A stretch of DNA of 62,611 nucleotides from an uncultured Candidatus Saccharibacteria bacterium (GCA_964362125.1 CAYICS010000004.1:1-62611), one strand, 5' to 3'. Positions 11,789-59,003 are shown, numbered from the stretch's first letter. Translations and numbers: made by a program. Notes: a model not told the origin generated them from the sequence alone.

Positions 11789-11873
11789 GGAAGGGTCGCA
11801 TAGCGGTCTATTGCAGCGGCTTGGAAAGCCGCGCCCCGCAAGGGGCTCGTGGGTTCGAATCCCACCCCTTCCG
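11789..11873 (+). tRNA. tRNA-Ser (GGA), long variable arm; CCA not encoded at this copy
   Basis: GGAAGGG/CCCTTCC acceptor stem, anticodon loop TT-GGA-AA, GGTTCGAATCC T-loop. Confidence 0.95.
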
Positions 11874-11875
11874 CA

Positions 11876-11946
11876 CTTCGGCAAGCTCAGTGCAAGCAAC
11901 TTCGGCAAGCTCAGTGCAAGCAACTTCGGCAAGCTCAGTGCAAGCA
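11876..11946 (+). repeat. Tandem repeat (CTTCGGCAAGCTCAGTGCAAGCAA)x3
   Basis: Identical 24-bp units with no spacers. Confidence 0.95.
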
Positions 11947-11967
11947 TAGGGAAACACCAAAATAACT

Positions 11968-12261
11968 ATGACTACGTGGCACGTGTATATGCTTCTTTGC
12001 GATCAGAAAACTTTTTATGTAGGCATTACCGATGATCCTAAAGAACGATTTGCAGAACACCAAGCGGGTAAGTCGCTTTTTACAAAAAAGTTTTCTGACA
12101 TTCAATTTGTCTACTGCGAAAACTATCCCACAAAGCGCGAATCAGCATCACGCGAAAAACAAATTAAGGGATGGTCGCATGCAAAGAAGCAAATGTTGAT
12201 TGATAGAAAGCTGGGATATAATTTTTGTACTGAGCTTGTTGAAGTTTTGGGGGTGGGATAA
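11968..12261 (+). CDS. Small stand-alone GIY-YIG nuclease (UPF0213/YhbQ-like)
   Basis: HVYMLL...FYVGITDD..R..H...RE.QIKGWS..KK motifs. Confidence 0.9.
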   Translation: MTTWHVYMLLCDQKTFYVGITDDPKERFAEHQAGKSLFTKKFSDIQFVYCENYPTKRESASREKQIKGWSHAKKQMLIDRKLGYNFCTELVEVLGVG

Positions 12262-12538
12262 CTTGCTCTGAGCCTGCCGAAGAGAATCCCACCCCTTCCG
12301 CCAGTTAGTAAATGAAGTTATTGGCTCGCCCGCTCCCACTTCGCCCTTCGGGCTATAAGGAACAAGTCGTGGGCTCGCCAGCCGTTTTTCGGGGAAATTT
12401 CAAGCCGTTTTGCCTGCCCGCCGAAGCCTTGGCGCAGGCAGGAATTCAAGTAAGGCCAAAAGCGGGCTTTTCTTTTCTGAATTGAAAGAAATCATAATTT
12501 TTGATAGTATAGTATAGAAGATTTGTTGAACAAATAAT

Positions 12539-13524: not shown

Positions 13525-13947
13525 GTGTCTGGAGTGACGCTGGTAGAATTAATTTTGGTTATTGGCCTGATTGCCGCTGTAGTTTTTATTTACCTGCCCT
13601 ATCTTCGTTCTTTCCAGCAGGCCAATGATTTGAATGTGGCGGTGGAGACGGTCAAACAAGGCGTCAGCCGCGCCCAAGCCCGGGCTTTGGCCGGCGAGGA
13701 AGACAGCGGCTGGGGAGTGAAAATAGAGAACGGGAAAGCGACAATTTTCAAGGGCAGCGGTTTTGCCGGCCGCGATGCCAGCTTTGACGAGGTTTATCGT
13801 TTGCCCGGCTTGGCTGTTTTAGGCCAATCAGAAATTGTTTTTGAGAAGCTTACCGGCAAACTTTTAGCCGGACCCGGCCAGTCAGCCGCCAGCTTCAGTT
13901 TAGGCGACCAGAATTTAACCGTTGACCTCTATGGCACGGTTCAATAA
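13525..13947 (+). CDS. Type IV minor pilin / pseudopilin (FimT/GspH-like)
   Basis: G-VTLVEL prepilin motif followed by a hydrophobic helix; exact start uncertain. Confidence 0.8.
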   Translation: MSGVTLVELILVIGLIAAVVFIYLPYLRSFQQANDLNVAVETVKQGVSRAQARALAGEEDSGWGVKIENGKATIFKGSGFAGRDASFDEVYRLPGLAVLGQSEIVFEKLTGKLLAGPGQSAASFSLGDQNLTVDLYGTVQ

Positions 13948-15355
13948 CGGCTTTTCTTTAATTGAACTGGTTGTCTCTCTTGGCTTCATTGCTCTGGTTG
14001 CCGTCATTATTTTTGGAGAAATTATTTTTGGTCAGCGCACCAACTTTTTCTCTGATGATGCCACCCGAGCATCTTTTTTAGCTCAGGAAAAAATAGAAAT
14101 TTTAAGAAATATCCGCGACGCTGATTTTTTTGATCTAACCGCCGGCACGACAACGGAAACAATTGATAATTATTTTGAACGGCAGACCCAAATTACTGAT
14201 GTTGATAATTTTCGCAAGGAGGTGGTGGTAATTGTTAAAAAAATCAATCAACCGGCAGTGTCGGTGACTTTACGCGCCCGTTTTGCCAACTGGCTGGCGA
14301 CAGTTGAGGATTGGAGCCAGCCCAATCCCGAAGGCAGTTTTGATTTCACTCCGGAAAACAGCGGCTCTAACAATCACAATGCCAAGACCGTGACCGCTGT
14401 CGGCAACTATCTTTATATCGGCAACGCCAACAGCGCCGGCAAGGAATTGATTATTTTAGATATTACCAAAGTCCCGGTCTTAACTATCAAAGGGACGTTA
14501 GACTTAGACGGCAGTCCTCAAAAAATCGCTGTCTCCGGCGGCTATATTTACATCGCTTCTGATTCCAACACCGAAGAACTGCAGGTGATTGACGCCGCTG
14601 ACCCGGCCAATCCTCGGCAAATCGCCAGTTTTAATCTGACCAACGCCAACAGCGGCACTGATAATAGCGATGCCCTCTCCATCGAATCTATTGGGGTCCA
14701 ACCCCAATATATTGCGCTGGGGAGGAAGGGGGGCGCCGGCGAGGAGTTGTTTATTTTTGACGCGGCGGCGCCCACCTCGCCGCAGTTAATCGGCAAACTT
14801 CAATTAGACGGCACCCCGGCCGATCTTAAATTTTTAAATAATAAATTATTTATAGCTTCTGATGATGACGCTAAAGAATTTCAGATAGTTGATTTAGCCA
14901 ATCCCCAGTTTCCGGTTCTTATCGGCGGCTTTAATCTGGACAGCGGCAATAATACAGCTGATGCTTTGGCCCTTGATATTAAGCCGGAAGGCGATCGTCT
15001 CTACCTCGGCCGGGCCGGCAGCAACAATGCTCCGGAATTTTATCTTTTCAATATCAGCAATGCCAACGCTCCCCAGCTTTTATCTATTTTCAATGTTGGC
15101 GGCAACGGCGCTGATATTAAACATCTTTCTTTTGCCCTGACCCGCAGTTTAATTTTTGCCCTCACTGACGATACGGCCGCTGATTTTCAGACGATTAATA
15201 TTGCCAATGAACTTTCGCCGGCGCTTTTCTCCAAGTTGGATGTCAGTGGCTCGCCTAATCAAGCTGATTACAGCCCCTTGGCGCAAAAAATGTTCGTCGC
15301 CGGTCAGTCCAATCCGGAAATACAAATCGTCGCCCCAAGGCTAGTTTTCGACTAG
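13931..15355 (+). CDS. Minor pilin fused to an LVIVD-like beta-propeller
   Basis: G-FSLIEL prepilin motif; repeated ELxIxDxxxPxxPxxxGxLxLDG units. Confidence 0.85.
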   Translation: MARFNNGFSLIELVVSLGFIALVAVIIFGEIIFGQRTNFFSDDATRASFLAQEKIEILRNIRDADFFDLTAGTTTETIDNYFERQTQITDVDNFRKEVVVIVKKINQPAVSVTLRARFANWLATVEDWSQPNPEGSFDFTPENSGSNNHNAKTVTAVGNYLYIGNANSAGKELIILDITKVPVLTIKGTLDLDGSPQKIAVSGGYIYIASDSNTEELQVIDAADPANPRQIASFNLTNANSGTDNSDALSIESIGVQPQYIALGRKGGAGEELFIFDAAAPTSPQLIGKLQLDGTPADLKFLNNKLFIASDDDAKEFQIVDLANPQFPVLIGGFNLDSGNNTADALALDIKPEGDRLYLGRAGSNNAPEFYLFNISNANAPQLLSIFNVGGNGADIKHLSFALTRSLIFALTDDTAADFQTINIANELSPALFSKLDVSGSPNQADYSPLAQKMFVAGQSNPEIQIVAPRLVFD

Positions 15356-15390
15356 CCAGGTTGTAGGTTATAGGGAATAGGTTCTAGTAT

Positions 15391-15546
15391 ATGAAAATAG
15401 ATTCTTACAAAAACCTATTGGAGACACAGTTGGAGATAGCGAAACGTTTCTCATGGACTGAAAGGTCAAATTTCGATAAAGTCGATAAACTTTTAGATGA
15501 GGTCATGCGAATGTTAAACAAAATAATCAGAGAATTAAATGATTAA
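15391..15546 (+). pseudogene. Internally deleted four-helix-bundle (23S rRNA-IVP/bAvd-like) gene flanked by inverted heptamer arrays
   Basis: Translated by hand: MKIDSYKNL fused to LETQLEIAKR...LLDEVMRMLNKII; 12-bp perfect IR 15357-15368/15570-15581. Confidence 0.7.
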
Positions 15547-16033
15547 AAATCTACTACCTACAACCTACCACCTACAACCTGAAAAAGGATTCACCTTGAT
15601 TGAAGTTTTGATTTATTTGGCGGTGATGGCGGTGGTGGTGCCGCTCTTGTTGAATTTATTTGATGTAACAGTCAGTTCGGGCGCGCTTAATCGGGAAATG
15701 CGGGAAAGCCGGGCCGAAGCCAGTCGCGCTTTGCAGATAATGATCCAGATGGTGCGCAACGGCTCGGAATTAAAGAAGCCGGCATTAGGCGCCGGCGCCA
15801 GTGAACTGCAAATTGACGATAAAAGATTTTTCTTGGAAAGCGGCCAGATTAAAATTGAGGAAGGCGCCGCCGCCGTTCAGCCGCTAACCGCTGCCGGTTT
15901 TCTGGTTTCTGATCTTCAATTCTCTAATTTTTCCAGATTCGGCACAGCCGGTTTAGTCACAATCCGGTTTAAAATTAAAAGAGGCGACTATGAAAAAATC
16001 TATTACGGCGCAGCCGCGTTAAGAAGGAATTAG
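15539..16033 (+). CDS. Type IV minor pilin (PilW/GspJ-like)
   Basis: KG-FTLIEV prepilin motif; leader encoded by a heptamer repeat. Confidence 0.85.
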   Translation: MIKNLLPTTYHLQPEKGFTLIEVLIYLAVMAVVVPLLLNLFDVTVSSGALNREMRESRAEASRALQIMIQMVRNGSELKKPALGAGASELQIDDKRFFLESGQIKIEEGAAAVQPLTAAGFLVSDLQFSNFSRFGTAGLVTIRFKIKRGDYEKIYYGAAALRRN

Positions 16034-25775: not shown

Positions 25776-25837
25776 GAAAACAAAAGAGAACAGAGTGAGT
25801 CTGCGCCACTCATCTGTTTTGTGTTACAATAAATCTA

Positions 25838-27407: not shown

Positions 27408-27508
27408 GTATCGATGCTAATATACGAATGAATGCGAATGATACGAATAGGAATACGGATTCGCAACCCCATTCGTAGATTCGCAAATTCGTAGATTCGC
27501 ATCGAAGC
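27408..27508. repeat. ~100-bp GTATCGATGC...GCATCGA palindromic element, copy 1
   Basis: ACGAAT/ATTCGT arrays; homologous copies at 42517, 47228, 49982, 51054, 58899. Confidence 0.9.
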
Positions 27509-42516: not shown

Positions 42517-42601
42517 GTATTGATGCTAATATACGAATTGCGATTCGTAACCCCATTCGTATCATTCGTATATTCGTATATTAGTATATTCGCATCGATA
42601 C
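42517..42601. repeat. GTATCGATGC palindromic element, copy 2
   Basis: GTATTGATGC...GCATCGATAC ends, directly before rplW. Confidence 0.88.
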
Positions 42602-45656: not shown

Positions 45657-45994
45657 CTAGAAGTTCTAAAAAAGGTCCGTATGTTGATGAAAAACTTTTG
45701 AAGAAAGTGGCTAAGTTGAAAGTCGGTCAAATTAAAGAGATTAAAACCTGGTCCCGAGCTTCAGAAATTGCCCCGGAGATGGTTGGTTTTACCATTCACG
45801 TCCATCAAGGGAAAAATTTTGTGCCAGTAGCCATTCGAGAAGAAATGGTTGGTCATCGCTTAGGTGAATTCGCTCCCACCCGCAAGTTCGTTAAGCATGG
45901 AGGAAAGATTCAGCGCGAACAGGAGCAGAAGCGAGCAGAGGCGGAGAAAGCGGCGGCACAAGCGGCTAAGGCCACCGAAAACCCTAAACCCTAA
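45653..45994 (+). CDS. rpsS: 30S ribosomal protein S19 with a C-terminal extension
   Basis: [23 protein letters not shown]; stop supplied by the CCCTAAA array. Confidence 0.98.
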
Positions 45995-46004
45995 ACCCTA
46001 AACG
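45979..46004. repeat. (CCCTAAA)n array, left arm flanking rplV
   Basis: 45983-46004 is the exact reverse complement of 46515-46536. Confidence 0.9.
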
Positions 46005-46006
46005 TT

Positions 46007-46507
46007 ATGTCTACTGCAACAGCCAAACTAAAATATCTAAAAATCGCGCCGCGCAAGGTGCGGTTGCTTGCTAATACCCTTAAAGATTTAACAATCAATG
46101 AGGCTGAGGCTCAGTTGCTGTTGCGGCCGCAGCGTTCGGCGCCGGCGTTGTTGAAACTGCTCCGTTCGGCAATAGCCAATGCTAAACAAAAAAAGTTATC
46201 AGTTAATAAATTAACAGTTACCAGTATTACAGTTGATCAGGGGCCGATGTTGAAAAGATTTTTGCCGCGAGCCATGGGCCGGGCGACGCCTATTCATAAA
46301 AAGACCAGTCATATTACCATTGTTTTAACTGAAGCTAACAAAGAATTACCAACAAGGTTTACGATTTTACCGAAAGAAAAGAAGGTTAAGAAAACAGCTA
46401 AACCTAAAGGGCGCAAGACTGAACCAAAGGCAGAGGCGAAAATCCAGCCTAAAGTCGAAGAAAAACCCGGCTTTTTCCGCCGCATCTTCCGTCGTAAAGC
46501 GATATAG
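46007..46507 (+). CDS. rplV: 50S ribosomal protein L22 with a Lys-rich C-terminal extension
   Basis: IAPRKVR, VDQGP.LKR..PRAMGRA. Confidence 0.98.
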   Translation: MSTATAKLKYLKIAPRKVRLLANTLKDLTINEAEAQLLLRPQRSAPALLKLLRSAIANAKQKKLSVNKLTVTSITVDQGPMLKRFLPRAMGRATPIHKKTSHITIVLTEANKELPTRFTILPKEKKVKKTAKPKGRKTEPKAEAKIQPKVEEKPGFFRRIFRRKAI

Positions 46508-46540
46508 GGTTTAGCGTTTAGGGTTTAGGGTTTAGGATTT
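46505..46540. repeat. (TTTAGGG)n array, right arm flanking rplV
   Basis: 22-bp perfect inverted match to the left arm. Confidence 0.9.
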
Positions 46541-46547
46541 AAAAAAG

Positions 46548-47338: not shown

Positions 47339-47749
47339 ATGTTAATACCTAAAAAAGTAAAACATCGAAAATGGATGAAGGGGCGTTCGCGGAAGCGCCG
47401 ACTTGATACCCGAGGAACAAAATTAGCTTTCGGTAGTTTTGGCTTGAAAGCGGAGGGTTCGGCTTGGATTAATTCGAAACAAATCGAAGCCGCCCGCCGC
47501 ACCATCACCAATTTCATTAAACGCGAAGGTAAAGTTTGGATTAGAATTTTTCCAGACAAACCGGTGACGATGCGGCCGCCAGAAGTAACTATGGGCGGCG
47601 GCAAAGGGTCGGTCGATCATTATGTTTTCCCAGTGAGGCCGGGCCGGATTTTGTTTGAGATGGATGGGGTAAGCCCTGAGGTTGCCAAAGAGGCGCTTAG
47701 ACTAGCAGGACATAAACTTCCCATTAAGACGAGAATAGTTACTAAATAA
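47339..47749 (+). CDS. rplP: 50S ribosomal protein L16
   Basis: [25 protein letters not shown]. Confidence 0.99.
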
Positions 47750-47872
47750 ATTTTCAATGTTCAATGATCAATTTTCAATTAATGACTCAATGATTCAATT
47801 TTCAAACCCGTTGGTTTGTTTCATTGCTTCATTGAAAATTAAATGAAAATTGAAAATTGGTAATTGAAAATT
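47749..47872. repeat. Heptamer-array hairpin (TTTTCAA/TTGAAAA type)
   Basis: Starts at the rplP stop; homologous to 6547-6620. Confidence 0.88.
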
Positions 47873-49981: not shown

Positions 49982-50081
49982 GTATCGATACCAATATACT
50001 AATTTACGAATGATACGAATGGGTTACGAATCACAATCGGTATTAGTATAATTAGTATCATTCGTATATTAGCATCGATAC
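49982..50081. repeat. GTATCGATGC palindromic element, copy 4 (inverted)
   Basis: Reverse complement of copy 3 with few mismatches. Confidence 0.9.
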
Positions 50082-51054: not shown

Positions 51055-51159
51055 TATCGATGCTAATATACGAATGAATGCGAATGATGCGAATAAGCTC
51101 ACGAATGATTCGTAAACCCCATTCGTATCATTCGTAAATTCGTAGATTCGCATCGAAGC
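51054..51159. repeat. GTATCGATGC palindromic element, copy 5
   Basis: Begins on the G of the rplF TAG stop. Confidence 0.9.
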
Positions 51160-58898: not shown

Positions 58899-59003
58899 GT
58901 ATCGATGCTAATATACGAATGAATGCGAATGATACGAATAAGCACACGAATCGATTGGCAACCCTATTCGTAGATTCGCAAATTCGTAGATTCGCATCAA
59001 AGC
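58899..59003. repeat. GTATCGATGC palindromic element, copy 6
   Basis: First 41 nt identical to copy 1; fills the gatC-gatA spacer. Confidence 0.9.

Follow-up and report, generated by a model that had tools for sequence, protein, structure and literature searches.

In the window, that is, the 62,611-nt stretch of DNA analysed here, a span of 226 nt separates the stop codon (TAG, 15353-15355) of a gene for a pilin-like protein with LVIVD repeats from the motif G|FTLIE in a type IV pilin-like protein of 164 aa (Table 1). Within this span, a 51-aa ORF lies between two short tandem arrays, hereafter the left and right arms, which have a period of 7 nt and 4.3 copies each (TRF). The upstream stop codon is 2 nt 5' of the left arm, which reads C AGGTTGT AGGTTAT AGGGAAT AGGTTCT AG and contains five AG dinucleotides in 7-nt phase (15358, 15365, 15372, 15379 and 15386); because four of these five are preceded by T, the left arm has TAG stops in all three frames. 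The right arm, CTACTAC CTACAAC CTACCAC CTACAAC CTG, contains five CT dinucleotides in the same phase (15551, 15558, 15565, 15572 and 15579). The arms are 31 nt long each, 77% complementary and 163 nt apart. Their outer 12 bp pair perfectly (CAGGTTGTAGGT / ACCTACAACCTG), and the stem is imperfect further in. With at most one mismatch, the 11-mer ACCTACAACCT has four occurrences in the window, none of them outside this locus, compared to 0.41 expected, and none of 100 shuffles reached four. In the minimum-free-energy fold of the RNA from 15345 to 15595, both arms are paired (−56.3 kcal/mol, z = −3.3 relative to shuffles). The sequence, the ORF list and TRF thus confirm the initial annotation, which had described a 51-aa ORF between left and right heptamer arrays with a 12-bp perfect inverted repeat.

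Table 1. Features at the pilin junction of the window (positions counted from the first nucleotide of the window).
Feature	Position	Strand	Evidence
Upstream host gene; pilin-like, 477 aa, LVIVD beta-propeller repeats	13922-15355	+	ORF list; PF08309 (LVIVD) 55.3 bits
Complete insert of ~226 nt: both arms and the remnant gene between them	15356-15581	+	Missing at the orthologous junction of relatives
Left arm, four heptamers + AG	15357-15387	+	TRF; AG run of 5
Remnant ORF, 51 aa	15391-15546	+	TIGR02436 25.5 bits; PF05635 18.9 bits; N-terminal consensus; alignment of intact relatives
Downstream host gene, 164-aa type IV pilin-like protein	15539-16033	+	PF07963 28.5 bits (cut-off 21.2)
Leader-coding part of the downstream pilin gene, MIKNLLPTTYHLQPEKG	15539-15589	+	N_methyl motif from residue 15; ORF list
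Right arm	15551-15581	+	CT run of 5; complementary to left arm; translated within pilin leader

The translation of the ORF, MKIDSYKNLLETQ...RELND, combines the two ends of a four-helix-bundle protein, as had been proposed from the peptide alone. In its C-terminal part, residues 10-49 match positions 68-108 of the 109 positions of TIGR02436 (25.5 bits, cut-off 24, E = 1e-5; NCBIfam), and the stretch LETQLEIAKR...DEVMRMLNKII aligns with helix 4 of intact relatives, e.g., ELETQIEIAKRL...NEVMRILNTII in locus L010. In this alignment, we counted ~63% identity between the C-terminal 41 residues and one intact relative. The profile search was thus positive with NCBIfam, while the match to positions 72-106 of PF05635 (18.9 bits, Pfam cut-off 33.8) and that in a six-frame search of the genome with TIGR02436 (22.2 bits, cut-off 24) fell below the cut-offs. 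The N-terminus, MKIDSYKNL, fits the consensus M-x-I-x-S-Y-K-D-L that precedes VWQK in 104 intact genes (with L in 100/104 and Y in 52/104) and agrees with the N-terminal pattern of the family (S-Y/F-K-D/E-L before VWQ). Because both ends fit the family termini, the ORF is best explained as an in-frame internal deletion of ~65 residues in a TIGR02436/PF05635 gene, by which the N-terminal nine residues were fused to helix 4. The full four-helix domain (~110-125 aa, with a Q..R...S...N..E core) is absent; the deletion removes helices 1-3 together with the invariant alignment columns Q30, N41 and E44, and the conserved core, quoted as GxxRxxxSxxxNxxE in PMC3936711, is lost. On these grounds, we read the ORF as a remnant and neither as a working family member nor as a member of a short-protein family, and the peptide probably does not form a functional four-helix bundle. 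A conserved mini-protein family as the identity of the peptide was ruled out, as a search of 5.8 billion proteins retrieved only the peptide itself and no other homologous mini-ORF. Microhomology was considered as the cause of the deletion: the N-terminal K-D-L site and the A-E-L site of helix 4 share 6-7 nt in some intact genes (GAATTA in the copy on contig C5); over 60 genes, however, the mean shared word is 3.65 nt compared to 3.55 nt between unrelated genes, arguing against a general mechanism.

Comparison with relatives shows that the cassette, i.e., the gene with its two arms, is an insertion. Here and below, the 618-kb genome is G000, its 24 contigs carry the prefix C, and relatives are numbered from G001 onward. 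Orthologues of the upstream gene with 46% protein identity are present in G008 and G001, which belong to two genera within the same family; orthologues elsewhere are more distant. The corresponding junction consists of a stop/start overlap (TATGAATAA) followed by the pilin leader MNNKG in G008, a 4-nt spacer and the leader MNKG in G001, and a TAATG overlap and the leader MKG in G017. Thus, all three relatives have an empty junction, a point that the initial annotation had proposed to check, and their leaders comprise 3-5 residues compared to 17 in the pilin of the window. The cassette was thus inserted where relatives have a tight overlap of stop and start codons; with only 46% protein identity in the relatives compared, the extent of the insert (~226 nt) is approximate. 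A metagenome scan for closer relatives with this junction gave only matches of 24% identity, and an exact-protein look-up gave none.

The insertion also reaches into the downstream pilin. The ATG at 15539 sits in the last codons of the remnant (overlap ATGATTAA), and from there the pilin reads through the right arm. Therefore, the right array encodes the 17-residue leader MIKNLLPTTYHLQPEKG that precedes G|FTLIE. The prepilin N-methylation motif (PF07963) occupies residues 15-34 of the 164-aa pilin, and between the ATG at 15539 and this motif there is no other in-frame start. The start position, the position of the motif and the single in-frame start together bear out the earlier proposal that the right array is translated as the leader of the next pilin. 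The arrangement is recurrent. Five intact cassettes in the candidate phyla radiation (CPR) have a pilin gene with an array-coded leader directly downstream, e.g., MSKSYKLKAG|FSIVE, with pilin starts 29-159 nt away; all five pairs are on the same strand and none on opposite strands. Together with three remnants, this brings the cases of array-coded pilin leaders to eight. The genome encodes a prepilin peptidase (C14:4127-4480). We suggest that insertion into the leader is tolerated in a manner comparable to the break-tolerant helices of rRNA: the leader would be a permissive landing site because it is cut off, and prepilin peptidase would remove the array-encoded residues harmlessly. The recruitment of an element arm as a cleavable pilin leader represents a concrete consequence for the host, and one that is repeated in ultra-small bacteria.

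Several lines of evidence support the earlier claim that this protein family is linked to inverted heptamer arrays. First, a profile search of the contigs identified three intact TIGR02436 genes in the genome, on contigs other than that of the window, and all three are flanked by inverted 7-nt arrays, each with a unit of its own (AGCTKTT, AAAAGTT and AATTTTC). Second, we analysed the flanks of 109 loci, 29 of them from the same order (60 genomes) and 80 from many phyla, including Patescibacteria, Bacteroidota, Clostridia, Proteobacteria, Acidobacteriota, Planctomycetota, Nitrospirota and Chloroflexota. The cross-phylum sample comprises the 80 homologues closest to a CPR-type query, identified with an alignment of eight sequences, and is biased to one subfamily. 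Both within the order and across phyla, complementary tandem arms surround most of the sampled genes, generally with period 7 and less frequently with period 8 or 9. In this subfamily sample, 86/109 loci (79%) scored above the 95th percentile of control windows taken 900 nt away in the same loci, compared to 8/209 of these controls (Mann-Whitney p = 3e-39), and 18/32 same-order loci and 61/80 cross-phylum loci lay above a mismatched-flank control. Third, the polarity of the arms is fixed: on the coding strand, G exceeds C in the upstream arm in 69 loci vs 10. The most common in-phase dinucleotide is AG in the upstream arm, and the downstream arm carries CT. The longest in-phase run has a mode of five on both sides (AG upstream in 27 loci, CT downstream in 28), runs of at least four are present on both sides in 43/109 loci, and AG runs of at least four were found in only 4/417 control windows; the remnant cassette has exactly five AG and five CT. 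These data support the conclusion that a link between gene and arms, AG-phased upstream and CT-phased downstream and mostly with five units per arm, is typical of the family. Across loci, mismatches between the arms showed no G:U bias in the sense transcript (60 G:U vs 76 A:C), which rules out such a bias as a sign of pairing at the RNA level; RNA-level pairing is, therefore, not favoured over DNA-level pairing.

Fourth, the number of TIGR02436 genes and the number of (AGN5)4AG matches are correlated over 61 genomes of the order (Spearman 0.63, p = 7e-8, not corrected for phylogeny), with a median of 2 arrays per genome in genomes without the gene, 14 in those with at least one and 42 in those with at least three. 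Three genomes with 14-30 arrays and no detected TIGR02436 gene are exceptions. Contrary to the suggestion that the locus at 15356-15581 is the only gene-carrying member of the heptamer-hairpin family, there are three intact cassettes on other contigs, and in the window the ribosomal protein gene rplV is also bracketed. The rplV gene (L22, 46007-46507) lies between (AAACCCT)x3.6 and an inverted (TAGGGTT)x5.3 within 45979-46541, and the first of these arrays supplies the stop codon of S19. Here, an essential host gene sits between cassette-like arrays; AAACCCT is a common unit in this genome, and the bracketing may reflect the chance adjacency of two solo arrays. A further protein, of 208 aa (L127, G026:C10:8246-9255), has a weak N-terminal match to the four-helix bundle, and its TAGGACCAA-like arrays are direct and not inverted.

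Arrays of this kind are abundant in the genome. It has 203 period-7 arrays compared to 9 in a shuffle, with a median of 4.3 copies and 81 arrays with 4-5 copies. Arrays could, in principle, have arisen by replication slippage in place at gene junctions, in which case nothing would be mobile and the ORF would be a dying resident gene that by chance lies between two of them. Their excess, the fact that some are in frame inside what are probably tsaD, ksgA and proS, the bracketing of rplV, and published reports of heptanucleotide excess in bacteria, in whose available text no link to a gene is made (PMC4692102, PMC2700814), would all fit slippage. However, slippage accounts neither for the mutual complementarity of the arms of each cassette, which are built from locus-specific units and score far above the mismatched-flank and shifted-window controls, nor for the empty junction of relatives, nor for identical arms and whole hairpins at unrelated loci, and we consider slippage alone very unlikely. 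The in-frame arrays are found in essential genes, which judged from their translation are probably tsaD, ksgA and proS (C18:441-470 and 628-659; C1:25506-25534 and 25787-25819; C3:68124-68156); the encoded peptides, e.g., LKAKSYKLKA or LTYNLQPITYKL, resemble the array-coded pilin leader.

We consider it likely, with a probability of about 0.75, that the span 15356-15581 is a decayed cassette of the intervening sequence (IVS) type, in which a TIGR02436/PF05635 gene is bracketed by complementary 7-nt arrays of ~5 units. The insert is a small, selfish-looking element and resembles the intervening sequences that are cut from rRNA. Genome and relatives together contain intact cassettes, other deletion remnants, and arms-only and multi-copy gene-less hairpins. 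Among the remnants, that in G046 (MYVESF|AELETQ...KKLQ) also consists of the N-terminus and helix 4 and is flanked by AGCTNNT arrays; its TGA stop overlaps a pilin ATG, and the leader of that pilin, MKNQLKAKSYKLKAQKG, is array-coded. Because the G046 copy is located in an unrelated pilus operon (pilB-pilC-pilin) in a different family, it represents an independent event. A copy in G043 lacks its middle and is directly upstream of MRG|FTLIE, and copies in G058, G002, G003 and G033 are truncated at the N-terminus, carry smaller deletions or are frameshifted; in all five genomes the arms still flank the broken gene. Locus L125 (G003:C6) is a four-helix-bundle gene with a small N-terminal deletion between TAGCAAA arrays, just 5' of what, by eye, is probably a tRNA gene.

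Gene-less hairpins would be the far end of this series. The segment C5:57323-57399 consists of 36 nt that are 100% identical to the left arm of the intact cassette on C23, a GTA loop, and 38 nt with 92% identity to its right arm, and reads as the C23 cassette minus its 446-nt interior. Similarly, C9:18055-18119 is like the arms of the C5 cassette and shares with them the AGAGGA immediately interior to the left arm. A 124-nt hairpin in the window (47749-47872) is built of AATTTTC-array arms around a small central hairpin (AAACCCGTTGGTTT) and exists in at least seven copies, among them C11:8387-8511 (94%), C2:46525-46658 (100%) and four more diverged ones, all with unrelated flanks. The copies on C4, C11 and C2 are 94-100% identical over 104-125 nt, and that on C2 differs from the window copy only by a nested 30-nt GC-rich hairpin (TCCGCCAAAGGCGGATCCGCCTCTGGTGGA) in the right array. 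No target-site duplication was seen at three aligned copies. The unit of the remnant cassette itself, AGGTTGT/ACAACCT, occurs elsewhere only as solo arrays, on four other contigs and twice in frame in genes. Based on the empty junction in relatives, the other armed remnants and the arms-only match to an intact cassette, the evidence for decay towards an empty hairpin is circumstantial but substantial, and the earlier view of a gene caught midway to an empty hairpin is supported to that extent. The whole series, from intact and hollowed cassettes to arms-only and multi-copy hairpins, is present in one genome, and the empty orthologous site in relatives supports a MITE-like life cycle for IVS-like elements outside rRNA.

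The multi-copy hairpins also fit a different origin, in which they are REP-like, are moved by RAYT/IS200-like Y1 transposases, and received the gene as a passenger that entered a pre-existing hairpin and is now being lost. The genome encodes three Y1_Tnp (PF01797) paralogues of ~250 aa (C9:6039-6269, 36.4 bits; C8:3600-3827; C3:41356-41583), the gene-less hairpins are multi-copy, near-identical and found at unrelated loci, and arrays outnumber genes (58 five-AG arrays vs 4 genes). RAYTs normally sit among their REPs; by contrast, there are no heptamer arrays within 1.2 kb of the three Y1 genes. Moreover, the fixed orientation of the gene relative to its arms (69:10) is unexpected for random entry into symmetric hairpins, the gene-arm association spans many phyla, and the count of four-helix-bundle genes tracks that of arrays over the 61 genomes. 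Thus, we regard an origin as REP-like hairpins with a passenger gene as unlikely.

Alternatively, the 51-aa product could be functional, and the in-frame hollowing could have been selected for that function, e.g., as a single-helix subunit that joins or poisons pentamers formed by the three intact paralogues. Two independent remnants, in the window and in G046, keep the same parts in frame (the N-terminal 6-9 residues and helix 4), and in the window the frame is open and the C-terminal part is well matched to an intact relative. However, the core motif is lost, the search of 5.8 billion proteins gave no second mini-ORF of this kind, and the stops of both remnants overlap a pilin ATG, so that translational coupling explains the open frame without a function of the protein. 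We therefore consider a functional peptide very unlikely.

These findings suggest a model in which the arms would pair in the operon transcript to form a stem of ~24 bp, the basal 12 bp of which are perfect. Like the stems of rRNA intervening sequences, this stem would be a substrate for RNase III, which is encoded in the genome. Simple excision is disfavoured, as cleavage within the right arm would split the coding region of the pilin; the stem must, therefore, be melted or protected during pilin synthesis. We suggest that ribosomes translating the remnant would melt the inner stem and reach the overlapping pilin start by termination-reinitiation. Such coupling of translation to the overlapping start would also be the reason why both independent remnants are in frame. 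Further loss of the interior would then give an arms-only hairpin of the kind that is common in this genome.

The closest published relative of the cassette is the ORF-bearing IVS of 23S rRNA in Coxiella burnetii. This IVS has a 28-bp terminal stem that RNase III cuts in vitro, and tandem GACAGAT heptamers, the unit number of which varies among strains, precede its S23p ORF; a selfish nature has been proposed (Warrier et al. 2016, PMC4990558). An ORF-bearing 23S IVS is also described for Leptospira (Ralph & McClelland 1993, as cited in PMC4990558). These IVSs and the cassette described here share the PF05635/TIGR02436 family and terminal inverted repeats that enclose the ORF in a long stem. 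The heptamers directly 5' of the Coxiella ORF, variable in number, have their counterpart in the period of 7 nt on both sides of the cassette. Both types of element occupy sites that tolerate a break or extra sequence, both are suspected to be selfish or mobile with no known enzyme, and ORF-less IVS hairpins exist in other bacteria. The cassette differs in that it lies at a stop/start junction of pilus genes and not in helix 9, 25 or 45 of 23S rRNA, in that its gene is hollowed, and in that one arm is translated as a pilin leader. Moreover, excision by RNase III has been demonstrated for the Coxiella IVS, whereas for the cassette we propose it by analogy.

Two other groups of elements invite comparison. 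Dispersed GGGAATC array pairs in Xanthomonas (Rehm et al. 2015, PMC4692102) and heptanucleotide elements of four and five units in Geobacter metallireducens (Aklujkar et al. 2009, PMC2700814) are interpreted in the available text of these papers as G-quadruplexes or regulator binding sites. As described there, they resemble the arrays reported here in having ~4-5 units of 7 nt, often as convergent inverted pairs, and in being transcribed and mostly intergenic with some inside genes. In contrast, that text mentions no protein family, whereas the arrays here bracket and co-vary with four-helix-bundle genes. With MITEs and REP-RAYT systems, the cassettes share a gene-carrying form beside many short gene-less derivatives with inverted repeats, and near-identical copies at unrelated loci and at gene junctions. 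The sister hairpin with AATTTTC arms is present in multiple near-identical copies, as expected for a MITE, and the AGGTTGT unit of the remnant cassette as solo arrays elsewhere. Unlike these systems, the cassette has no transposase and its gene no known catalytic fold, target-site duplications were not seen at three hairpin copies, arm sequence varies by cassette while phase and polarity are kept, and RAYT-like genes are not beside arrays. The DGR accessory protein Avd belongs to the same fold family as Xcc0516 (2GSC) and BT_0352 (2RLD). The allusion to Avd in the initial annotation does not apply here, since a search of the whole genome for a reverse transcriptase (PF00078) gave no match and the remnant is, therefore, not a DGR component. 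In the available text of PMC3936711, PF05635 genes are noted inside cas operons, without arms. Outside the Coxiella IVS, we found no statement in the literature of a link between gene and array. The locus described here adds a hollowed intermediate, arms-only siblings in the same genome and a recurrent exaptation as pilin leader, together with the 5+5 mode and the correlation of gene count with array count.

The solved homologues Xcc0516 and BT_0352 have five chains per PDB entry, and an intact paralogue matches 2GSC at E = 1.4e-21; Xcc0516 is described as five four-helix bundles (cited in PMC3936711). Five-chain structures and a mode of five units per arm suggest that a pentamer may read the phased arms. 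Tentatively, we propose that four-helix-bundle pentamers and five-unit heptamer arrays might be a cognate protein-nucleic-acid pair, in which every subunit of the five would recognise a single phased AG (or CT) in an (AGN5)4AG arm; gene-bearing cassettes would then be autonomous, and the arms-only hairpins and solo arrays, which are far more numerous, would be served in trans. If so, the hollowed copy would be a non-autonomous element that retains a perfect 5+5 arrangement and relies on the three intact paralogues, and the pairing would explain much of the excess of heptanucleotide repeats in bacteria. The 5+5 phasing matched to a pentamer, with the correlation between gene and array counts, makes this a testable binding hypothesis. 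It bears on the function of PF05635/TIGR02436, on the origin of rRNA intervening sequences, both of them questions since the early 1990s, and on the excess of 7-nt repeats in bacteria.

The window contains two further sets of repeats. A second class has 8-nt units (ATTCGTAG / ATTCGTAT) and is present at 27471-27501, 58966-58996, 42555-42592, 49987-50072 and 51059-51150; an identical 31-nt array (unit ATTCGTAGATTCGCAA, 1.9 copies) occurs at two distant places, and there are two inverted pairs. A GIY-YIG gene (11968-12261, within 11811-12303), one of six GIY-YIG matches in the genome, lies 3' of a tRNA-like sequence. A 24-nt unit occurs ahead of the gene in three perfect copies (11875-11946) and again, partial and inverted, at 12225-12246; next comes a second copy of the tRNA-like 3' end, GAATCCCACCCCTTCCGC, at about 12283-12300.
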